DNA of 64,000 nt. Source: Candidatus Aminicenantes bacterium (lineage in GTDB: Bacteria; Acidobacteriota; Aminicenantia; Aminicenantales; JAFGBC01). Every line of letters begins with the position of its first letter. The stretch's first letter is position 1. Under the pieces are notes generated by a model. It saw only the letters and a list, made by a program, of their open reading frames with translations, searched no databases and was not told the origin of the DNA. Shown here in pieces: positions 18,210 through 30,079 of the stretch. The stretch covers positions 640,001 through 704,000 of the forward strand of contig OY969696.1 in assembly GCA_963702005.1 (NCBI GenBank), given 5' to 3'. The position numbers and the translations under genes were made by a program.

Positions 18210-20819
18210 ATGAAAGTCTTCGCCAACCTCTTTTCCCGCGCATCGCCACAAGCGGGACAAAATAACACCCAGGCCACTCCGGATGCTTATTGGAGCCTTG
18301 CAACAGAGCAACTCCTTTCCGCGCTGAAGACTACCGATAACGGCCTCCAGCCAACGGATATTGAGCAGCGTCTGAAGCAATACGGGCTGAATTTAATTAA
18401 AGCAAAGCCGAAGACGGCCGCGTTGTGGCTTTTCCTGAACCAGTTTAGAAGCCCGCTCGTTCTCATCCTCATCTTCGCCGCGGCTATCTCTATCATTCTA
18501 GGCGAATGGGTGGATGCTAGCATCGTGCTGGCCGTGGTGTTCGGCAGCACCGTGCTCGGCTTCGTACAGGAATACCATGCCAGCAACGCCGTCGAGAAAC
18601 TGAGGTCACAGGTCACGATCAAATCCAGTGTCCTCCGTGGAGGTCAGCCGCAGCTGCTGCCCTCCGAACAAGTCGTGCCGGGCGATGTCGTGCTGCTCTC
18701 CGCGGGCAGCCTGATCCCCGCCGACGGCGTCGTACTGGCGGCCAATGACTTCTTTGTCAACCAGGCCGTGCTGACCGGCGAAACCTTCCCGACGGAAAAG
18801 CTTCCGGGGACCGTCGCTGCCAAGGCCGGCCTGGCGGAACGTACCAACTGCGTCTTCATGGGCACCAGCGCCAGCAGCGGAACCGCCCGGGTGTTGATTG
18901 TGCACACCGGCAAGGCCACGGTGTTCGGCCAGATCGCGCAGCGGCTGAACCTGCGGCCGTCCGAGACCGAGTTCGAACGCGGCATTCGTCGCTTCGGCAA
19001 CCTGCTCACGCAAGTCATGCTGGTGATGGTGATCATCGTCCTGACGGCCAACCTCTTCCTCGCCAAGCCGCTAATGGACTCGCTCCTCTTCGCCCTCGCG
19101 CTGGCGGTGGGCCTGACGCCCGAACTCTTGCCCGCCATCATCAGCATCACGCTCTCCCACGGCGCCCAGCGAATGGCCAAACGCGGCGTGATCGTGCGCC
19201 GCCTGAACTCCATCGAGAACTTCGGCAGCATGGACGTGCTGTGCACCGATAAGACCGGCACGCTCACCGAAGGCGTCGTCCGGCTCGACGGCGCGCTCGA
19301 TCCGCAGGGGCAGCCCTCCCAGCCCGTTCTGCGCTACGCCTATCTCAACGCGCACTTCCAGACCGGATTGAATAATCCCCTGGATGAGGCGATTCAAGCT
19401 AGCGCGCAGCAGGCGAAGCTGGATATCAGCGCCGAACACAAGGTGGACGAGATACCCTATGATTTTGTACGGAAATGCTTGAGTGTCGTCACCGCCGATC
19501 CCCGGGGCGAGAGGACCCTCATCACCAAGGGCGCTTTGGACAACGTTCTGAGCATCTGTAACAGCGTACAATCCGGGGAGGGCGCGCATCCGCTGGACGC
19601 GGCCAGACGGGCGGAAATTGAGCGGCGGTACAGCGAATGGAGCGCCCAAGGCTTCCGCGTGCTCGGGCTGGCGACGAAGGCGGTAGGCGAGCGGCCTGGA
19701 GCTTATACGCGCGCCGATGAAAACGCACTCGCCTTCGCCGGCTTTCTGCTCTTTTTCGATCCGCCCAAGGCCGATGTACGGCAAGTCATCGTCGACCTGG
19801 CGAAGCGCGGCGTGCAACTGAAGATCATCACCGGCGACAACCGGAAGGTGGCGCGCCACATCGCGGAGGCGGTGAACTTGCCGGTCCTGGGTGTGCTGAC
19901 CGGCGGCGAGCTGGCCGACCTGCGCGACGAGGCTCTGTGGCATCTGGCCGAACGCACCACGTTCTTCGCGGAAGTGGATCCCAACCAGAAGGAGCGCATC
20001 ATCCTTGCGCTGCGCAAGACCGGGCACGTGGTTGGCTATATGGGCGACGGCATCAACGATGCGCCGGCCTTGCACGCCGCGGACGTAGGCCTTTCGGTGG
20101 ACAGCGCGGTGGATGTCGCCAAGGATGCCGCCGACTTTGTCCTGCTTAAAACGGATTTGGGCATCCTGCGCGAGGGCATCGATGAAGGCCGCCGGACGTT
20201 CGCCAACACGCTCAAGTACATCCTCACGACCATCAGCGCCAACTTCGGCAACATGTTCAGCATGGGCGGGGCTTCGCTGCTCCTGCCATTTCTGCCCCTG
20301 CTCGCCCCGCAAATCCTGCTCAACAACTTCCTTTCCGATATTCCGGCCACAACCATCGCCCGCGATAATGTGGACCCGGAATGGGTCGAGAAGCCGCGCC
20401 GCTGGAATACCAGGTTCATCCGCGACTATATGGTGATCTTCGGCCTGGTCAGTTCGATCTTCGACTTCCTGGCTTTCGGGACGCTGTTGTTTCTATTCCG
20501 CGCCGCGCCTGCGGAGTTCCGCACGGGCTGGTTCATCGAGTCGCTGTTGACGGAGCTGGTCATCGCGCTCGTCGTGCGAACGCGCCATCCCTTCTTCCGC
20601 AGTCGGCCGGCGACACTCTTGCTGGCGAGTACGTTGGTCATCATCGGCATTACACTCGTGCTCCCGTATCTGCCGTACATTTCGGTGTTCGGATTCATCC
20701 CCTTGCCCGCACCGGTCATGGCGACGATGATCGGATTAACGGCGCTCTATGTCCTGGCCGCTGAGTTGACCAAGAAGGTTTTCTACTCTCGGGCGCGGAA
20801 AGCTAGTTGGCAGCCGTAA
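18210..20819 (+). CDS. mgtA: Magnesium-translocating P-type ATPase; last codon(s) replaced by an IS end
   Basis: TGET, PELLP, DKTGTLT, TGDN, GDGINDAP, SANFGN motifs; stop TAA lies inside the IS. Confidence 0.93.
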   Translation: MKVFANLFSRASPQAGQNNTQATPDAYWSLATEQLLSALKTTDNGLQPTDIEQRLKQYGLNLIKAKPKTAALWLFLNQFRSPLVLILIFAAAISIILGEWVDASIVLAVVFGSTVLGFVQEYHASNAVEKLRSQVTIKSSVLRGGQPQLLPSEQVVPGDVVLLSAGSLIPADGVVLAANDFFVNQAVLTGETFPTEKLPGTVAAKAGLAERTNCVFMGTSASSGTARVLIVHTGKATVFGQIAQRLNLRPSETEFERGIRRFGNLLTQVMLVMVIIVLTANLFLAKPLMDSLLFALALAVGLTPELLPAIISITLSHGAQRMAKRGVIVRRLNSIENFGSMDVLCTDKTGTLTEGVVRLDGALDPQGQPSQPVLRYAYLNAHFQTGLNNPLDEAIQASAQQAKLDISAEHKVDEIPYDFVRKCLSVVTADPRGERTLITKGALDNVLSICNSVQSGEGAHPLDAARRAEIERRYSEWSAQGFRVLGLATKAVGERPGAYTRADENALAFAGFLLFFDPPKADVRQVIVDLAKRGVQLKIITGDNRKVARHIAEAVNLPVLGVLTGGELADLRDEALWHLAERTTFFAEVDPNQKERIILALRKTGHVVGYMGDGINDAPALHAADVGLSVDSAVDVAKDAADFVLLKTDLGILREGIDEGRRTFANTLKYILTTISANFGNMFSMGGASLLLPFLPLLAPQILLNNFLSDIPATTIARDNVDPEWVEKPRRWNTRFIRDYMVIFGLVSSIFDFLAFGTLLFLFRAAPAEFRTGWFIESLLTELVIALVVRTRHPFFRSRPATLLLASTLVIIGITLVLPYLPYISVFGFIPLPAPVMATMIGLTALYVLAAELTKKVFYSRARKASWQP

Positions 20820-22244
20820 GGACATCGATAAGCGTTTCTTAATGAGTGAAACCGTAAGGACATCGATAACTGATCGGCCTTCAAGCGATCGGATCGACGA
20901 CTTTACCGACGAACGGAAAAGGAAACGTCTTGATAACCTTCCCCTCGTACTTGACGAAGACTCTGCGATGGTACGTCGAGAGTGTGGCCACGACGTACTG
21001 TCGTTCCAGTCTACGGAGGATGAAATACGCGGCGCCGTTGAATTCGATGCAACCGTGGGCATCCACCTTGCGGACGAACGAGACGCAGCCCTTGGCGATC
21101 GGCAGATCGAGGTGTCCCCGGGAATCGAGATGCTGATCGAGATTGAAGGCGGATGGGAGATGACGAAGTGCGGACCAGAGCCGGTCGCGGAGTTGGCCGG
21201 GAAAGCGGGTGCCGTGATCGGTTGCCCGGAGGCTTCGATTCGGCTTCTCGAAGTGGTAGTAGCGGAGGAATCGTTCGCTCGTGCGGCGCAAGGACCGAAG
21301 ATCCGGACAGGGATGACGGAGCACCCGCGCCTGCCAGACCGCATTGAAGCTTTCGATAGCGGCGTTGCGGCCGGGTTCTTTCGGGGGAATGAAGCGAAGC
21401 TGGATGCCCAACAAAAGATGGAGCCGGATGAGCTGAGAGAGACTGTAGCGATACCGTCCCCCTCCCGTCGCGGCCATCTCGTTGTCCATCTGGGAGATTC
21501 GGGGAAGCCCCATAACTTGCCAGGAATCAACCAGATGACGGCAGAGCGAGATCGTTCTCTTGTCGCGGACCTGGCTGGCCGCAGTGGTCTGTCCGGCGGC
21601 GTCGATGGTGTGGATGGAGTAGAAGCGGGTGACTCCCGCAGGACCGCGGAGATGACGGGGCCCGACCAGGTCGGTTTGCTGAAGGTCGCCCATCTTACGG
21701 GCCGGGACGTAGGGATAGGGAGGCCCGTTGGAGGAGCGTTTGGCCTTGGCCTTTTTCGTTCGTCCGGCGCGGGCCAGGATCTTCTCGATGGTCGAGATGG
21801 CGGGAAGCTGGCGGACGCCCCGTCGCTGAAGCTCGAAATGGATCGTTTCGGCGCCGATGCCGGCAAAAGCGGCGCGACGGGTCTTGTGGGCCGCCAGTTC
21901 GTCGCGCAGGACCAGGATTTTCCGGACCAAGGGCTCCCGCGTTTGATGGGGGATATGTCTCGGTACCCGACTTTGGTCGCGAAGCCCATCAAGCCCGAAT
22001 TTTCGATGGCGATTGAGCCATTTGGAGAGCCAAAAGCCGCTCCGATGGACGGTGCGGAGGATTTCGTTAAACCCAATCCCATCATAGTAATTTTCAATGG
22101 CTTTCTTCCGAGTCTCATATTCGCTCTTGATGCTCACCGCAAAGATCTCCTTCCCACTGGAATGGGAAAGAGTTTAAGCGATGAGCAAATCGCTTATCGA
22201 TGTCCTTACGGTTATTCACTTAGCGATGTCCTTACGGGAACCCC
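20808..22244 (-). mobile_element. IS481-like insertion sequence, copy 1 (1437 bp)
   Basis: Ends TGGCAGCCGTAAGGACATCG / CGATGTCCTTACGGGAACCC; repeated subterminal ccgtaaggacatcg motifs; CTAGT target duplication (20803-07, 22245-49). Confidence 0.9.
20881..22137 (-). CDS. DDE transposase (HTH + rve integrase core), IS481-like
   Basis: KWLNRHRKFGLDGLRDQSRVP HTH region; QTD, MDNE, NAAIESFN DDE core. Confidence 0.9.
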   Translation of the reverse strand: MSIKSEYETRKKAIENYYDGIGFNEILRTVHRSGFWLSKWLNRHRKFGLDGLRDQSRVPRHIPHQTREPLVRKILVLRDELAAHKTRRAAFAGIGAETIHFELQRRGVRQLPAISTIEKILARAGRTKKAKAKRSSNGPPYPYVPARKMGDLQQTDLVGPRHLRGPAGVTRFYSIHTIDAAGQTTAASQVRDKRTISLCRHLVDSWQVMGLPRISQMDNEMAATGGGRYRYSLSQLIRLHLLLGIQLRFIPPKEPGRNAAIESFNAVWQARVLRHPCPDLRSLRRTSERFLRYYHFEKPNRSLRATDHGTRFPGQLRDRLWSALRHLPSAFNLDQHLDSRGHLDLPIAKGCVSFVRKVDAHGCIEFNGAAYFILRRLERQYVVATLSTYHRRVFVKYEGKVIKTFPFPFVGKVVDPIA

Positions 22245-23157: not shown

Positions 23158-24720
23158 TCAGAGGACGACGGCCCCGGACAAGACGTCCTTGGCGCCGCTG
23201 AGAATGTCAACGGCCTCGATGATGACGAAGTGATCGCCGGCTTGCAGCTTCTGGAGGTTGAGCGAGATGTGGATCTTCTCCTGGACAAGCTCTAAGGTCT
23301 TCATCTCTTCGAAAACCTTAGTCGATTTATCGTCGAAAATCGTGATCTTAACCGCGGCTCGGCCCAGGTCCTTCCCGTTCTTGGAGATCCGGATATAGTT
23401 CCCGATAGTAAAGGCGATGGTCTTGGGCCGGTATTCGAGGCCGGAGATCGCGATGGCCGGAGGCTTAACGCCGACGAATTTCTTCAGGGAGACGACGTCG
23501 ACCCCCTCCCGGCGGACCCGGACCTCGATCGTCCGTTCTTTCTCTCCCCCTTTATCTTGGGGCTGGTAGACAAGCAGATAGTACTTGTCTTCCTTGACGG
23601 CCGCCTCCTTCAGCGTCTCCAGGACCATGTTGGAAAACGCGGTCAGGCCGCCCGTCGACCGGCTGATCCGGCGCAGGACATCTTCATAGTCCCCGTTGAC
23701 GTCCCGGAGTTCCAAATCCTGAGACCAGTTGGACGCCGGTCGAGACAGAGACTTCATGAGGAGGAGGTGGAAGGTGATGTTGGCCTCGGCGAAGAGCGCG
23801 CGGATTTGATCAGCGGGAAGGAGGGTCGTTATGTCGAACGAGCGTTGAAGTTCATCCAGCTGGGTCTGGGCAATTCTGGCCCGGGTTTGAGGAAGGGGCT
23901 CGACCTGGAGGCCGAGAAAGTTCCTGATTTCCGTGTCCAGCCGGCCCTGAGACCTGAGCCTTGGGAAAAGGTCGCGCTGCTGGAAACAGATGGCCCATTT
24001 CTCGCCGTCCCAGCGTTCAAGCTTTCGAATGACGGCCCGGTACAGATCCAGGTTGACGTCCAGGAGTCGCCTCCTGTAATCTCCCCAGGTTCTTTTATAC
24101 TCTTCGCAGAATTGACTGATGGCTTGGAATAAGTCTTGCGTCGGGTAATCGGTCACTTCGTTTCCCGACAGGGCGGCCACCAGATTTTCCGCTCTCCCCT
24201 CCAGAGAATGGAACGACCTCGAGATTTCAAACCCCGAAATCTTCTTATACTTGATTAGGGAGTCCTTGATCCTGGAAACGAGGGCGTCGATGTTCTGACC
24301 CGGTTGGGTGTCGAAAACTTTGTCTTCGACCAAGACGATCATCCGGTCGTTGGGCGTAAAAATGGTTTTAAAAAAGTAATCGATCGCCTCCCCGACTTGA
24401 TCCGTGTAATCGAAGACGTTGAAGATGAGGACAAAGTTTCTGGGCCGGGGCGTCCCGGGGAGCAGTCCGGGGAACGCGACCGCGGCCGGAGCAATCGTCC
24501 TCGAGACGGCCTCGAATCCCGTGATTTCCTGTTTGAGGCCGTTTTCATAGACTTCAAAATCCTCCTTGGTCAGGCCGGCGATAAAGCCTTTGCTGTCAAA
24601 CACCCGGACCGGGACTTCGACCGCGGTGACCACGACCGATTCCCTGGGTTTGTTTTGAGGACTGAGGACACCGACGGAAACAAGGAGGACGATCAATGCC
24701 GACAGGCGAATCTTTTTCAT
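23158..24720 (-). CDS. Secreted VWFA-related (acidobacterial-type) protein
   Basis: Signal peptide; VEVPVRVFD, GLTKEDFEVYENG, STGG, YYLLVY, IEVRV motifs. Confidence 0.7.
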   Translation of the reverse strand: MKKIRLSALIVLLVSVGVLSPQNKPRESVVVTAVEVPVRVFDSKGFIAGLTKEDFEVYENGLKQEITGFEAVSRTIAPAAVAFPGLLPGTPRPRNFVLIFNVFDYTDQVGEAIDYFFKTIFTPNDRMIVLVEDKVFDTQPGQNIDALVSRIKDSLIKYKKISGFEISRSFHSLEGRAENLVAALSGNEVTDYPTQDLFQAISQFCEEYKRTWGDYRRRLLDVNLDLYRAVIRKLERWDGEKWAICFQQRDLFPRLRSQGRLDTEIRNFLGLQVEPLPQTRARIAQTQLDELQRSFDITTLLPADQIRALFAEANITFHLLLMKSLSRPASNWSQDLELRDVNGDYEDVLRRISRSTGGLTAFSNMVLETLKEAAVKEDKYYLLVYQPQDKGGEKERTIEVRVRREGVDVVSLKKFVGVKPPAIAISGLEYRPKTIAFTIGNYIRISKNGKDLGRAAVKITIFDDKSTKVFEEMKTLELVQEKIHISLNLQKLQAGDHFVIIEAVDILSGAKDVLSGAVVL

Positions 24721-24882
24721 GCGACCCCCTGGGCGTTGCCATCCCTTTCTTCCATCTGCATATTTTATGCCAGATATGCGCCCTGATGATAATCTTACAA
24801 GGGCGGAACTCTGTCACTGAGTATAGACACCCGTCCACTTTTCATCCTCTCGTGCCGTCTGGCGATTTCTTCCGATGGGCTC

Positions 24883-24923
24883 CCGCGTCGATTCCATACG
24901 CTCCATTTTATCAAATTAATGAG
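24883..24923. repeat. Imperfect direct repeat, copy 2 (relic of the hrpA 5' end)
   Basis: Minus strand TGATAAAAT-7 nt-ATG GAA TCG ACG CGG (MESTR versus HrpA METTR); sits at the GC-to-AT transition. Confidence 0.7.
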
Positions 24924-24984
24924 TCCTTTTATTCTTAAACTACATTGACGCTGCTTATTTGCGAAACTGGCTATCTTTAAGATG

Positions 24985-25013
24985 TTGACTTTTCTATGTT
25001 ACGGCCTTAATCT
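24985..25013 (+). promoter_or_regulatory. Candidate promoter for the RT locus
   Basis: TTGACT-17 bp-TAATCT; an alternative TATAAT lies at 25129-25134. Confidence 0.45.
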
Positions 25014-25050
25014 TCAATGGAAAGGGTTGGTTTTGTTTAGTTACTTTGTT

Positions 25051-25118
25051 TTTCAATCGGATCGTGATGCTTTTGGAGTCTCTAAAAACTCCCATTCAAG
25101 ATCTCCCGATGATTGAAA
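25051..25118 (+). ncRNA. Candidate structured RNA/leader hairpin upstream of the RT
   Basis: Nested arms tttcaatc/gattgaaa, gatc/gatc, ggagt/actcc. Confidence 0.35.
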
Positions 25119-25196
25119 GGTCATGATTTATAATAAAAATGTCGTTTGCGTGGAAATGAAAGGCATTGACGATAATAGAAACCTAAAAGGAAATAA

Positions 25197-26711
25197 ATGG
25201 GTAGGATACCATTAGATCATTTTAGAGATACTGAAAAGCTAGCTAAAGCGCTAAATAAGCCAGATATCTATGAGTGGCTTGTTACAACTGGCTACTTCCC
25301 AGAGTCATATGTATTGCCTCCATGCTTTCAAGTGATAGACCATCCTGCATATGGGAAGAGATATTTCTCTCATTCAATGAGAAATTTTAAGCCTAAATTA
25401 GCTGAGTATCATCAAGTTAGTTTCCCGAAAACAGAGTTAATTGATAGAACTTTTGCATTGATTGATCCAGAGCTTCATTTGGATATCGCATATGCGATAA
25501 CGAAAAACTGGAATAAAATTATCGATTGTATTTTCCACAAAAACAACAAAGTGTGTTCATACAGTTTTCCTATTCCGCTTAATTCGGCGACTCCAGGGAA
25601 GATCGGAGGCTTACGGAGTGGCCGGATGATCTATGAATATATTGAAATGGCTGAAAACGATATTGCTAAAATAGCATATAATTATAAATACCTAATAAAG
25701 ACAGACATTACCAACTTTTACCCCTCAATTTACACTCACAGTATTTCTTGGGCTATACATGGGAAGGCTACTATACGTAAACTCTCCAACCGATATAATT
25801 ACTCATATATTGGAAACCGCCTGGATAAATTGTTCCAAAACTCTAATGATGGGTGCACCATTGGAATCCCGATTGGTCCCGCAGTTTCAGATCTAATAGC
25901 AGAAGTAATATTAGCCGGAGTAGATAGACAATTATCAAAATTAATTGATGATGATGCAGTCGTTGTTAGATTCAAAGACGACTATCGTATTCTCGTAAAA
26001 AGTGAATCTAAAGGCAAGGATTTAATTAAATCCCTCCAGGCTAATCTAAAAGAGTTTAAGCTTGATCTTAACAACGAAAAAACAAAGTACTATGAGTTGC
26101 CAGATGGGTTGTTTCGTAATTGGGTATCTCAGTATCATGCTGCGAATCCGAGACCGAAAGCCTATTATAGTTTCAGAAGATTTAAAGAAGTCTATTTATC
26201 AGTAATAAACATAGACAGACAGAATCCATCTACTGGTGTGATAGACAGGTTTCTAGCGGACATAGTGACAAAAGAATACCTGCTTCGTTTTAATTTGAAC
26301 TCGAGGACTTTGCCTAAAATTATTAGTCTCCTTCTGATGTTGGCTGACTTAAGAATCAAAGCATTTCCAAAAGTGTTAGCAATTATTGAATCTATACTAA
26401 AGTCACCTTTTGGTAAAGCGCATTCTGATAATATCGTTAGATACCTCGATAATTTACTGCAAACACTTTCCGAGCATGAATTGAATAATAGATACCTTAT
26501 CAGTTGGATATGTTATTTCTTTAAGGCCAATAAATTAGATAAGAAAATGGCCCACAAGTATAAGTTCAAAGATCCTATCATCCGTTCTATTTACACCAGT
26601 CGCTCAGCAATTTTCAAAGATAGTATTGATTTTAAGCTCTTTTTGGGGGCTAAATCAGTGGCGAAAAAAGTAAATTTATTGGCACATCTCGATGCATTTA
26701 AGCCGCAATAG
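25197..26711 (+). CDS. Abi/UG (DRT)-type reverse transcriptase with helical C-terminal region
   Basis: GYFPESYVLPPCF N-terminus, FPKT..R, DITNFYPSIYTHSISWA, GIPIGPAVSDLIAE, RFKDDY (YxDD variant), LNNEKT; strongly AT-rich. Confidence 0.9.
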   Translation: MGRIPLDHFRDTEKLAKALNKPDIYEWLVTTGYFPESYVLPPCFQVIDHPAYGKRYFSHSMRNFKPKLAEYHQVSFPKTELIDRTFALIDPELHLDIAYAITKNWNKIIDCIFHKNNKVCSYSFPIPLNSATPGKIGGLRSGRMIYEYIEMAENDIAKIAYNYKYLIKTDITNFYPSIYTHSISWAIHGKATIRKLSNRYNYSYIGNRLDKLFQNSNDGCTIGIPIGPAVSDLIAEVILAGVDRQLSKLIDDDAVVVRFKDDYRILVKSESKGKDLIKSLQANLKEFKLDLNNEKTKYYELPDGLFRNWVSQYHAANPRPKAYYSFRRFKEVYLSVINIDRQNPSTGVIDRFLADIVTKEYLLRFNLNSRTLPKIISLLLMLADLRIKAFPKVLAIIESILKSPFGKAHSDNIVRYLDNLLQTLSEHELNNRYLISWICYFFKANKLDKKMAHKYKFKDPIIRSIYTSRSAIFKDSIDFKLFLGAKSVAKKVNLLAHLDAFKPQ

Positions 26712-26765
26712 GGTGTTTATCAAATTCATAGGCTCGGGAAACAGAAGGCGTCGCTATTTATTAGC

Positions 26766-28202
26766 TGGCAGCCGTAAGGACATCGATAAGCGTTTCTTAA
26801 TGAGTGAAACCGTAAGGACATCGATAACTGATCGGCCTTCAAGCGATCGGATCGACGACTTTACCGACGAACGGAAAAGGAAACGTCTTGATAACCTTCC
26901 CCTCGTACTTGACGAAGACTCTGCGATGGTACGTCGAGAGTGTGGCCACGACGTACTGTCGTTCCAGTCTACGGAGGATGAAATACGCGGCGCCGTTGAA
27001 TTCGATGCAACCGTGGGCATCCACCTTGCGGACGAACGAGACGCAGCCCTTGGCGATCGGCAGATCGAGGTGTCCCCGGGAATCGAGATGCTGATCGAGA
27101 TTGAAGGCGGATGGGAGATGACGAAGTGCGGACCAGAGCCGGTCGCGGAGTTGGCCGGGAAAGCGGGTGCCGTGATCGGTTGCCCGGAGGCTTCGATTCG
27201 GCTTCTCGAAGTGGTAGTAGCGGAGGAATCGTTCGCTCGTGCGGCGCAAGGACCGAAGATCCGGACAGGGATGACGGAGCACCCGCGCCTGCCAGACCGC
27301 ATTGAAGCTTTCGATAGCGGCGTTGCGGCCGGGTTCTTTCGGGGGAATGAAGCGAAGCTGGATGCCCAACAAAAGATGGAGCCGGATGAGCTGAGAGAGA
27401 CTGTAGCGATACCGTCCCCCTCCCGTCGCGGCCATCTCGTTGTCCATCTGGGAGATTCGGGGAAGCCCCATAACTTGCCAGGAATCAACCAGATGACGGC
27501 AGAGCGAGATCGTTCTCTTGTCGCGGACCTGGCTGGCCGCAGTGGTCTGTCCGGCGGCGTCGATGGTGTGGATGGAGTAGAAGCGGGTGACTCCCGCAGG
27601 ACCGCGGAGATGACGGGGCCCGACCAGGTCGGTTTGCTGAAGGTCGCCCATCTTACGGGCCGGGACGTAGGGATAGGGAGGCCCGTTGGAGGAGCGTTTG
27701 GCCTTGGCCTTTTTCGTTCGTCCGGCGCGGGCCAGGATCTTCTCGATGGTCGAGATGGCGGGAAGCTGGCGGACGCCCCGTCGCTGAAGCTCGAAATGGA
27801 TCGTTTCGGCGCCGATGCCGGCAAAAGCGGCGCGACGGGTCTTGTGGGCCGCCAGTTCGTCGCGCAGGACCAGGATTTTCCGGACCAAGGGCTCCCGCGT
27901 TTGATGGGGGATATGTCTCGGTACCCGACTTTGGTCGCGAAGCCCATCAAGCCCGAATTTTCGATGGCGATTGAGCCATTTGGAGAGCCAAAAGCCGCTC
28001 CGATGGACGGTGCGGAGGATTTCGTTAAACCCAATCCCATCATAGTAATTTTCAATGGCTTTCTTCCGAGTCTCATATTCGCTCTTGATGCTCACCGCAA
28101 AGATCTCCTTCCCACTGGAATGGGAAAGAGTTTAAGCGATGAGCAAATCGCTTATCGATGTCCTTACGGTTATTCACTTAGCGATGTCCTTACGGGAACC
28201 CA
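26766..28202 (-). mobile_element. IS481-like insertion sequence, copy 2
   Basis: Same ends and identical transposase as copy 1; own target duplication (A)TTAGC at 26761-65 and 28203-07. Confidence 0.92.
26839..28095 (-). CDS. DDE transposase, IS481-like
   Basis: Identical 418-aa protein to 20881-22137. Confidence 0.9.
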   Translation of the reverse strand: MSIKSEYETRKKAIENYYDGIGFNEILRTVHRSGFWLSKWLNRHRKFGLDGLRDQSRVPRHIPHQTREPLVRKILVLRDELAAHKTRRAAFAGIGAETIHFELQRRGVRQLPAISTIEKILARAGRTKKAKAKRSSNGPPYPYVPARKMGDLQQTDLVGPRHLRGPAGVTRFYSIHTIDAAGQTTAASQVRDKRTISLCRHLVDSWQVMGLPRISQMDNEMAATGGGRYRYSLSQLIRLHLLLGIQLRFIPPKEPGRNAAIESFNAVWQARVLRHPCPDLRSLRRTSERFLRYYHFEKPNRSLRATDHGTRFPGQLRDRLWSALRHLPSAFNLDQHLDSRGHLDLPIAKGCVSFVRKVDAHGCIEFNGAAYFILRRLERQYVVATLSTYHRRVFVKYEGKVIKTFPFPFVGKVVDPIA

Positions 28203-28277
28203 TTAGCTCTATTTCTTGAGTACGTTTATGAATTCTGCTTGCGCTACCCTGTTTATGTCCTTACTTAATAAGAGAGG

Positions 28278-29231
28278 ATGAAAATGCAAGAAAGTCATTC
28301 AAAATATTCATCGATCGATCTATGTATTCCTATATACCTCAATTCAAACATAGTACTTGATCTCTTGGCCATATTCGAGGACGGTTTCTCAAATGTCACA
28401 GAAATTAAAACGTCGATAACAGATGTAAAAGAGAAGAGAAGCGGACTTGAGGCTAAGGTCGGGGCTACCAACTTATTTGCTCTACTTGGAATTTCAGGTG
28501 GTGGGAATCTGAGTACCAGAAGCGCAGATAGTGGAGGGCTTACGGCGAGGACTGAGAAGATCCATACGCCAACTTCATTATTCAACAAATTGAGATCATT
28601 GTTAATTCAGGGCGGTTTGCTTAAAACTCTTGCCGAAAATGGTTCGAACCTATCAAGCATTAAAAGTGGAGACTTTTTGGAAACTAATACGATTCTCAAT
28701 AAAAACCCGATAATAGACACGTTCCAAGGATTATTGCAGTTCATGACATTCTCTTTGCCATTTTTAGATGATAACAAGGCCAATAATTCTGATATCGGTG
28801 GGAGGAAATCTTTAAAACAATCCCTCCAACCTAAAATTGATAACCAAAAAATAATCACTCAGATGAAAGGATTAGTAGAAGCTCTTTCAAGCGGAGCCAC
28901 CATTGATCTTATTGGGAAAACCGTTCCATTATCAGATACGACATTGGTACTTTCTTCACAAATTAGATTCTTCTTAAATGAATCCTATGATGAAATTCTT
29001 GATGGAGAATACAGAGTGCTTGCTAAAGTTGTGAGGACAATGCTAAGAGATACGTCGGAATCCATAAACTTACTTCGAAAAACAACCTTTAGTAGAATTC
29101 AAGATAGCCTATTTCATAAGATGATGTCAGGTCTCAATGAAATTGAACAAAAGGGATTGAAACCAGTTCAGCTAGTGACTGAGATAAATGGACCCGCTAT
29201 TCATCTGCTGCCCATTGCTATATATGTATGA
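28278..29231 (+). CDS. AT-rich hypothetical protein, DUF6414-like
   Basis: IPIYLNSNIVLDLLAIFEDGFS N-terminus, HTPTSLFNKLR, C-terminal LLPIAIYV resemble DUF6414 (from recall); GAGG SD. Confidence 0.65.
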   Translation: MKMQESHSKYSSIDLCIPIYLNSNIVLDLLAIFEDGFSNVTEIKTSITDVKEKRSGLEAKVGATNLFALLGISGGGNLSTRSADSGGLTARTEKIHTPTSLFNKLRSLLIQGGLLKTLAENGSNLSSIKSGDFLETNTILNKNPIIDTFQGLLQFMTFSLPFLDDNKANNSDIGGRKSLKQSLQPKIDNQKIITQMKGLVEALSSGATIDLIGKTVPLSDTTLVLSSQIRFFLNESYDEILDGEYRVLAKVVRTMLRDTSESINLLRKTTFSRIQDSLFHKMMSGLNEIEQKGLKPVQLVTEINGPAIHLLPIAIYV

Positions 29232-29287
29232 TCCAAGGTGCAAACATATTTATCTTAGATTATCGGTGCAGCTGGGCGGTGAAGGTT

Positions 29288-30079
29288 CTATCGCTTCCGG
29301 AGGCGGGTTAAAATGACCGGGCGGCCGTTGCCCTCAAGAATTTCGGCATCGACGCCGTAGGTCGTTTTAATGTTGGCAGCGTTAAGGGTATCCCGAACGG
29401 AACCGGCGGCTACGACTTTTCCTTTACGGAGAAGAACGATGGAATCGGCCGAGGCCGAAGCGACATTGGGATCGTGGGTGGTGAAGACGATGGTCTTTCC
29501 TTTGTCCCGAAGGGATTCGATCGTCCAGCATATCCTCTGAGTGTTGGCCAAATCGAGGTGGGACATGGGCTCGTCGAGGAGGAAGATCAGCGGATCCTGT
29601 GCTAGTACCCGGGCCAGCGAGGCGAGTTGTTTCTCTCCAGCACTAAGCGTCGGAAGCGCCCGGCTCCGGAGCTTCCGGATTCCCGCGGCTTCCATGGCCG
29701 CCTCGGCGGCGCGCCTGTCCTCGGCGCCCGGCGTCTCCAGAAATCCGAGATAGGGCGCGCGTCCAAGAAGGACATACTCTAGGACGCTGAGCTCGAACCC
29801 GGCCGGCTCCTCCTGTGGGACGAAGCCGATGACGCGGCTCATCTCGCGCCTGGAGAGGTCTGTTCCGGCCCGGCCGTCGAGCTCGATCCGGCCAACCCTC
29901 GGTCGGAGCCAACCTAGAATCAGATTGAGGAGTGTCGTCTTTCCAGACCCGTTGGGGCCGAGCAGGGCGCAGATGGTCCCGGCGCCGATGTCGAGCGAGA
30001 GGTCGCGGAGGACCTCGGGCCCGGACTCCGAATAGGCGAAGGACAAATCCCGGATCGAGATCATAGCTCCGCCGCTCAT
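29288..30079 (-). CDS. Fe-siderophore/cobalamin ABC transporter ATPase
   Basis: GPNGSGKTT, LSAGE, LLDEP, TTHD; ATGA overlap with the permease gene. Confidence 0.92.
   Translation of the reverse strand: MSGGAMISIRDLSFAYSESGPEVLRDLSLDIGAGTICALLGPNGSGKTTLLNLILGWLRPRVGRIELDGRAGTDLSRREMSRVIGFVPQEEPAGFELSVLEYVLLGRAPYLGFLETPGAEDRRAAEAAMEAAGIRKLRSRALPTLSAGEKQLASLARVLAQDPLIFLLDEPMSHLDLANTQRICWTIESLRDKGKTIVFTTHDPNVASASADSIVLLRKGKVVAAGSVRDTLNAANIKTTYGVDAEILEGNGRPVILTRLRKR

Follow-up and report, generated by a model that had tools for sequence, protein, structure and literature searches.

An IS481-type insertion splits a long predicted hairpin between a UG14 reverse transcriptase gene and a DUF6414 gene in an Aminicenantes islet

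Genes and features of the islet

The subject of this analysis is a stretch of 64,000 nucleotides (nt) of a Candidatus Aminicenantes bacterium (contig OY969696.1, positions 640,001 to 704,000; hereafter the window, whose own numbering is used throughout), and within it the spacer between a reverse transcriptase (RT) gene and a gene of the DUF6414 family. Both genes are encoded on the + strand of a small A+T-rich islet, and the spacer between them is now occupied by an insertion sequence (IS). An initial annotation, made from the letters alone, had proposed that this IS split a long hairpin, which could have been an RT-associated non-coding RNA (ncRNA), an RNase III site or an attC-like recombination site. 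We find that the hairpin is real and that the IS did split it. Its role is best described, tentatively, as that of a locus-specific stem-loop of the messenger RNA (mRNA). The features of the islet are the following (aa, amino acids; ORF, open reading frame; MFE, minimum free energy).

24900..29280, no strand: A+T-rich imported islet that carries the genes for RT and DUF6414 and their spacer; the inserted element itself is G+C-rich
25197..26711, + strand: RT gene, UG14, 504 aa, apparently intact (PADLOC RT_UG14, Pfam RVT_1)
26707..26752, + strand: 5' arm of the long hairpin, with the RT stop codon 26709-26711 within it (MFE pair list of the restored allele)
26753..26765, + strand: apical mini-hairpin, 26753-26756 paired with 26762-26765, entirely left of the IS (pair list)
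26760..26765, no strand: left copy of the target-site duplication, ATTAGC (flanks of five IS copies)
26766..28201, - strand: IS481-family insertion sequence, copy 2, 1436 bp, doubled subterminal repeats (NCBIfam, Pfam, repeats)
26839-28095, - strand: transposase ORF of IS copy 2, 418 aa (Pfam rve_3 and HTH_32)
28202..28207, no strand: right copy of the target-site duplication, ATTAGC (flanks of five IS copies)
28208..28253, + strand: 3' arm of the long hairpin, with the G+C-rich base CCC at 28247-28249, then TGTTTATG (pair list, sequence)
28270..28277, + strand: purine-rich ribosome-binding stretch AAGAGAGG, outside the hairpin, 6 nt ahead of ATG 28284 (read from the sequence)
28278..29231, + strand: DUF6414 gene, 317 aa from ATG 28278, with an alternative start at ATG 28284 (Pfam PF19952)

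The genome (G000) is one contig of 4.31 Mb with 60.4% G+C. The G+C content of the islet is about 35-41% over some 4.4 kb and that of the bordering host genes is about 60%; the left limit of the islet was drawn from composition alone. On the right, a genome of the same genus (G001) matches the ABC-transporter flank with 89% identity until window position 29281, and past that point it carries different genes. Neither G001 nor G002 yielded the left flank. As for the 3' region of the RT, it was found in neither of the two same-genus genomes and gave one weak match of 34 nt among 60 relatives. The RT and DUF6414 genes probably came in jointly, within a small A+T-rich islet.

The PADLOC profile RT_UG14 matches the RT with an E-value of 3.6e-206 over residues 7-503 (profile positions 6-492 of 493), the next-best PADLOC matches being Drt6, Drt4, AbiP2 and AbiK, and the Pfam family RVT_1 is matched with an E-value of 1.9e-15. 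The alignment with homologues of 504 aa is full length, and D261 and D262 are invariant in the 30 aligned proteins, that of the window included. Judged by these matches, the window RT is a UG14 member of the UG/Abi RTs with its catalytic motif intact. In 2022, Mestre et al. are said to have placed UG14 in Class 1 of the UG/Abi RTs, and the PADLOC neighbours Drt4, Drt6, AbiP2 and AbiK agree with this placement. In the portion of the Mestre et al. paper available to us (PMC9226505), UG14 appears solely as a predicted defence gene. A non-coding stretch of 476 nt (24721-25196) precedes the RT gene and contains a weak promoter-like site at 25113-25140 (9/12); the stretch has no Rfam match and resembles none of the regions that precede the RT homologues at 77 loci.

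The DUF6414 protein matches PF19952 with an E-value of 2.1e-29 over residues 15-316, and no PADLOC model matches it. According to the part of a preprint that was at hand (10.1101/2024.10.26.620412), the DUF6414 family includes one component of the Dodola system.

The insertion sequence

The transposase of the inserted element carries an integrase-core DDE domain and a helix-turn-helix (HTH) domain, and the ends of the element show inverted repeats and doubled subterminal repeats, with 22-nt units placed 26 nt apart. Its best NCBIfam family is transpos_IS481 (E-value of 9.7e-27). Since the score of 94 bits lies under the curated cut-off of 224 bits, in which the element differs from the family, we assign it as a distant member of IS481. 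The likeness consists of the DDE transposase, the terminal inverted repeats and the target-site duplications. IS481 elements duplicate NCTAGN targets. Five full-length copies occur in the genome, listed with 100% identity throughout, and each of the five is bordered by a 6-bp duplication of the type N(C/T)TAGN (ATTAGC, CTTAGT, GCTAGG and two with one mismatch).

The initial annotation had joined 26765 to 28208 in order to undo the insertion, and the ATTAGC duplication at 26760-26765 and 28202-28207 identifies this join as the true empty site. The restored spacer contains a single N(C/T)TAGN hexamer, namely the ATTAGC that was duplicated by IS copy 2. The position of the IS in the spacer is thus explained, as target-sequence preference suffices, and nothing suggests that the hairpin was recognised by the IS. 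A search for the uninterrupted site, which had been recommended at the outset, gave no result: among public reads, one DNA run contained 7% of the sampled words and no RNA run was listed for the locus; from the contigs of that DNA run the locus was matched only by a 140-nt RT fragment and IS-like pieces, none of which bridged the insertion.

Another copy of the element is present in the window:

20808..22243, - strand: IS copy 1, same element, 5958 bp upstream of copy 2 (repeats, genome copies)

Copies 1 and 2 have the same orientation, with the RT gene and a VWA-like gene of the host between them; as a pair they could function as a composite unit or favour a deletion.

Fold and statistics of the restored hairpin

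The restored allele consists of 26707-26765 joined to 28208-28253, with the IS and one copy of the duplication removed in scripts only. The IS-free spacer between the RT and DUF6414 genes measures 127 nt and the hairpin 105 nt. These 105 nt fold into one hairpin with 40 pairs (21 A-U, 12 G-C and 7 G-U) and small bulges, in which the MFE structure equals the centroid, and all four nested arm pairs that had been named for it are present. As had been described, the stem begins at the RT stop codon, with the correction that its first base (26707) stands 2 nt ahead of the TAG at 26709-26711; it ends 24 nt ahead of the DUF6414 start and leaves the ribosome-binding stretch AAGAGAGG unpaired. The hairpin coincides with the sole intergenic spacer between two co-directional genes. 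The IS does lie within the hairpin; its place, not exactly the apex as supposed, is the 3' shoulder of the mini-hairpin that caps the stem.

The RNA of the + strand folds with -31.4 kcal/mol, compared to -21.35 +/- 3.06 kcal/mol in 1000 dinucleotide shuffles (z of -3.28, reached by 5 of the 1000). For the RNA of the - strand the fold is -22.6 kcal/mol (z of -2.65), so that the + strand is more stable by 8.8 kcal/mol. Folded with DNA parameters, both strands are unremarkable (z of -1.65 for the + strand and -1.31 for the - strand). To place these values in their surroundings, 2834 windows of 105 nt were scanned in steps of one nucleotide over the IS-free islet, using a G+C-corrected stability. 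The hairpin window ranks first, and none of the 2625 windows that do not overlap it reaches its value. The z of the hairpin drops fast out of register; windows taken at 12-nt steps miss the hairpin, which the scan in single steps finds. Altogether, the claim that IS copy 2 split a long hairpin between the RT gene and its neighbour holds, and the hairpin exceeds what composition alone would give. The initial annotation had also read several G-U pairs as favouring the + strand. The energies agree with this, and the arms themselves do so to a lesser degree: in an unbiased DNA-level alignment of the arms, 5 G.T oppositions against 1 A.C are suggestive of RNA-level pairing on the + strand, at a difference that is not significant.

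The restored stem has GGG/CCC at its base and then TGTTTATG; inspected by eye, this sequence has 5 T in 8, and the arrangement is loosely terminator-like. The long interrupted RNA helix that is predicted here would also be compatible with an RNase III site, for which double-stranded RNA of at least about two helical turns is needed.

Conservation across RT and DUF6414 loci

Homologous loci were collected for both genes. The RT sample comprised 80 loci with RT relatives of 36-67% identity from many phyla, 76 of which had enough downstream sequence. Over the 105 nt counted from the stop codon, these 76 loci gave a mean z of -0.52 and a median of -0.16, with ten flanks below -2 and five below -3. 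At the nearest RT loci (61-67% identity), the downstream z ranged from -0.98 to +1.70. None of 77 RT downstream flanks, and none of the upstream flanks, resembles that of the window (E up to 1e-3). Similarly, ahead of 31 distinct DUF6414 genes the adjoining 105 nt had a mean z of -0.51, with one value below -3, and none of these flanks resembles the window spacer. A folding energy better than that of dinucleotide shuffles is thus found together with an absence of conserved structure in homologous loci.

The two genes were also sought in each other's surroundings. With tblastn, DUF6414 was detected in none of the 80 RT loci, and with Pfam in none of the 39 co-directional ORFs scanned downstream of the RT (at least 100 aa long and at most about 430 nt away, among the 66 loci having a downstream ORF). 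The RT was in turn absent from all 53 metagenome loci of DUF6414. In viral contigs no DUF6414 relative was found, and the locus of the one RT relative lacked DUF6414. RT and DUF6414 are therefore not a conserved pair. Elsewhere, the neighbours of the RT include UvrD-like helicases, type I restriction subunits, BrxL and methylases; as these are other defence genes, the pattern is that of a stand-alone RT within defence islands.

The search for DUF6414 relatives returned 53 proteins, the best of them 87% identical. This best relative (P0121) comes from a metagenome contig of 9.4 kb and is absent from both metagenome scans. It appears cut at the N-terminus in the alignment, and its contig might stop within the coding sequence, perhaps at a repeat; the spacer upstream of it may for this reason be off the contig.

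Integron recombination sites after UG14 RT genes

At several homologue loci with strong hairpins, the hairpin starts with RYYTAAC, with the stop codon inside, and ends with GTTRRRY. A crude pattern detector for attC was unspecific, with some match in 61 of 80 loci, and was used solely to nominate sites. Twenty-two sites from nine loci fit the textbook attC consensus, and 10 of the 13 pairs show compensatory changes. Their consensus fold has an R stem of 7 bp, unpaired spacers of 5 nt, an L stem of 3+3 bp and one bulged base. A covariance model built from the 22 sites recovers hold-outs in L031 and L053 and detects 25 sites, spread over 9 of the 80 loci; every one is co-oriented with the RT, and they lie at cassette spacing. 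In seven loci, an attC starts at the RT stop or at most 19 nt after it; six of these seven were training sites.

L026:2837-2895: attC at or shortly after the RT stop
L028:4513-4608: attC at or shortly after the RT stop
L031:4516-4593: attC at or shortly after the RT stop
L038:2526-2625: attC at or shortly after the RT stop
L062:4513-4584: attC at or shortly after the RT stop
L068:1917-2016: attC at or shortly after the RT stop
L079:4516-4587: attC at or shortly after the RT stop

From their consensus and covariation, these sites mark some UG14 RTs as integron gene cassettes. In this way, the UG14 RT takes its place among defence genes carried in integron cassettes, a mode of transfer that is already in print, as seen in the accessible parts of two reports (10.1101/2024.07.02.601719, PMC12614218). 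The prior for an attC in the window is raised by this finding. The genome of the window has the following IntI-like ORF.

G000:C1:3940761-3941219 (L142:1498-2010), - strand: probable truncated intI, 170-aa ORF (TIGR02249)

This ORF matches only the C-terminal half (positions 163-315) of TIGR02249, a model for integron integrases, with 238.6 bits, the cut-off being 265, and is the sole IntI-like match in the genome. In the 35 kb around it, a crude scan showed two weak attC-like hairpins and no array.

Possible roles of the hairpin

Two of the proposed roles, the attC site and the RT-associated ncRNA, are disfavoured by direct tests. In the integron reading, the RT and DUF6414 genes would be former gene cassettes and the hairpin a degenerate or atypical attC, that is, the recombination site of the RT cassette. 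It shares with the attC of the seven loci above, which stand within cassette arrays, the position by the RT stop, the length class (58-143 nt among the collected sites) and the hairpin nature; its outermost triplets are AAT...GTT, and the truncated IntI-like ORF exists elsewhere in the genome. However, that ORF is 3.27 Mb away, neither an array nor an integrase is near the hairpin, and a covariance-model search found no attC in the 64-kb window (E up to 1). The hairpin has no RYYYAAC/GTTRRRY pair (the best alternative register, CCGCAAT / GTTTATG, pairs 4 of 7), it lacks the bulged L-box stem, and its helix is continuous where attC has the 5-nt unpaired spacers. We scored this layout as 13 pairs plus 6 invariant AAC/GTT bases, 19 features in all, of which the 22 training sites show 14-19 and seven hold-outs 13-18. 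The hairpin ends reach 7 pairs and no invariant base on the + strand, and 8 and none on the - strand. Threading the layout through the whole restored region on both strands gives 16 at best, which equals the null (random 185-nt pieces of the islet, mean 15.4, maximum 17). The unremarkable single-stranded DNA folds given above also speak against an attC, as does the fact that the RTs bearing attC are the more distant ones (36-55% identity) and that the closest clade (61-67%) is without it. When the attC covariance model was run on the two halves of the hairpin apart it gave no match, a result without weight because a true 35-bit attC, halved likewise, was missed too. We regard an attC origin as very improbable. 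Nor does the second role, an ncRNA bound or copied by the UG14 RT as in DRT2, DRT3, DRT9, DRT10 and the retrons, fare any better. What recommends it is that the RNA of the + strand gives the best fold and that the place directly 3' of the RT is also that of the DRT3 ncRNA relative to the Class 1 RT Drt3b (UG8), going by the available sections of two papers (PMC9226505, PMC13174585). According to the second source, a 2026 preprint (PMC13174585), the DRT3 ncRNA is conserved across homologues and contains an ACACAC template, and the RT that it serves is Drt3a, the Class 2 partner, and not the one of Class 1; the window locus differs in having no second RT, no such conservation and no ACACAC motif. 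After 76 homologous RT genes neither structure nor sequence is conserved, UG14 RTs occur in defence islands with changing neighbours, and no Rfam family was matched between 24500 and 29500 (E up to 1), a search of the interrupted sequence that met the hairpin in halves only. Moreover, the same preprint, in its available part, describes Class 1 DRTs as untemplated, and protein-primed, template-independent synthesis is described for AbiK and Abi-P2 in the excerpt of another source (PMC9508834). We therefore consider an RT-associated ncRNA very improbable as well.

The remaining contest is between a stem-loop that acts in the mRNA and an inverted repeat without function, either a chance A+T-rich palindrome or a relic like a miniature inverted-repeat transposable element (MITE) or an enterobacterial repetitive intergenic consensus (ERIC) element, brought from the donor with the islet. 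On the latter account the IS insertion would have no effect through the hairpin. This account is a serious possibility, somewhat doubtful taken by itself and nearly as likely as the mRNA stem-loop. It agrees with the lack of conservation at the 76 RT and 31 DUF6414 loci, with the modest statistical margin in the shuffles and the islet scan, with the non-significant G.U asymmetry of the arms and with the frequency of z below -3 in comparable flanks, about 6% (5/76 and 1/31). What it leaves unexplained is that the single most structured window of the islet fits the spacer exactly, from the stop codon to the ribosome-binding stretch. Either arm matches only itself in the 4.31-Mb genome, so the hairpin is not a resident repeat family; neither arm is matched in 72,556 plasmid records, and reading the sequence shows no MITE flanking duplication or terminal-repeat layout. 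A MITE or an element of the repetitive extragenic palindromic (REP) type was rejected on the single-copy arms and the missing flanking duplication, copies in the donor genome being conceivable. Furthermore, strong hairpins at RT flanks are rarely mere chance, since of the five with z below -3 only one remains that is not attC-like: three are attC by the covariance model and a fourth by pattern only. The strong hairpins at UG14 RT stop codons of homologues are thus mostly integron attC. A locus-specific stem-loop of the RT-DUF6414 transcript, with a role in 3' end formation, stability or processing and now split by the IS, is the role we prefer, tentatively and at a little less than an even chance. 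It resembles known intercistronic and 3' stem-loops in that a long imperfect hairpin fills the spacer of co-directional genes from the stop codon on, with the downstream ribosome-binding stretch free and the coding-strand RNA more stable. Such stem-loops include transcript stabilisers, partial terminators and RNase III processing sites, and the palindromic intergenic elements of enterobacteria and Neisseria are examples of the kind. The window hairpin differs from these in being single-copy, with no conserved counterpart and no clean U-run, and its function is a putative one. Several observations weigh against the mRNA stem-loop. The full 127-nt spacer has a z of only -1.54, which 79 of 1000 shuffles reach, and in the islet scan the margin over the runner-up window, inside the RT gene, is small (-3.40 against -3.02 SD); the arm oppositions, as noted, are not significant. 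With no clean U-run and a length far beyond the usual, the hairpin is not a canonical intrinsic terminator, and a consensus scan of 24700-29400, which covered the IS-interrupted sequence and loops of 3-8 nt only, found no terminator. Because homologous loci have no similar hairpin, any function rests on a single sequence; the closest RT relative on record is 71% identical, and no orthologous locus offers itself for covariation. Beyond this, an undescribed defence cassette of three parts, in which a cis-acting hairpin, RNase III-processed or RT-bound, couples the RT, the spacer RNA and DUF6414, and which the IS would have switched off, is a most unlikely case, and the RT and DUF6414 are never neighbours in 133 other loci.

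Proposed mechanism

Following the mRNA stem-loop as the preferred role, the course of events may have been as follows. The spacer between two independently mobile defence genes was nearly all one imperfect stem-loop of 105 nt, which would have acted at the mRNA level in the transcript of the + strand. Standing at the 3' end of the RT message, it would have ended or stabilised this message, or served as a processing site, and would thereby have set the read-through into DUF6414. The stem-loop would be particular to this cassette, and it would not be an RT cofactor. An active element of the IS481 family then entered the sole N(C/T)TAGN hexamer, on the 3' shoulder of the apical loop, a site probably chosen for its target sequence and not for the hairpin. 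The insertion moved the arms 1.4 kb apart and would have cut DUF6414 off the RT transcription unit.

Taken by itself, the event carries little weight, being one more IS481-type insertion into an intergenic stem-loop, here in a small imported defence islet. It does illustrate that an RT of the defence type can have a striking hairpin beside it without needing it as a cofactor. If it is true that the hairpin set the expression ratio of RT to DUF6414, the IS would have uncoupled two defence genes.

Further observations on repeats and on UG14 neighbours

A match of 14 nt between the left edge of the islet (24907-24920) and the 5' arm of the hairpin (26716-26729), with 13 of 14 positions identical, was set aside as probably due to chance; by our rough estimate, 3 kb of A+T-rich DNA should contain tens of them. 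Another repeat, some 130 nt long, recurs many tens of times in the genome of the window (more than 60 places) and in G001 (L152:4712-4845 among them), the copies being about 70-100% identical over 30-145 nt. It has the look of a resident REP/MITE-like family and is unrelated to the hairpin.

In one subclade of the RT, with identity of about 51%, the gene of a UvrD-like helicase (about 700 aa) stands at the RT stop, with gaps of -32 to +8 nt, and in one further case such a gene lies upstream:

L032:4499-6646: UvrD-like helicase gene abutting or overlapping the RT stop
L036:2156-4246: UvrD-like helicase gene abutting or overlapping the RT stop
L037:4521-6611: UvrD-like helicase gene abutting or overlapping the RT stop
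L040:3436-5541: UvrD-like helicase gene abutting or overlapping the RT stop
L024:842-2989: UvrD-like helicase gene, upstream case

L032 and L037 have in addition a DNA methylase gene of 940-980 aa located 21 nt upstream. This subclade with UvrD-like helicase and methylase genes may be a multi-gene variant of the RT system.

In cyanobacteria, the UG14 RT genes are preceded at 41-101 nt by a conserved gene of about 820 aa on the same strand, and it is this gene that accounts for the conserved upstream DNA of the clade:

L001:497-2959: helicase gene of about 820 aa
L014:454-2955: helicase gene of about 820 aa
L015:440-2899: helicase gene of about 820 aa
L003:482-2959: gene of about 820 aa, likewise (the Pfam basis being the other three loci)

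The encoded protein is a helicase of the UvrD type into which an RNase T-like exonuclease domain is inserted.

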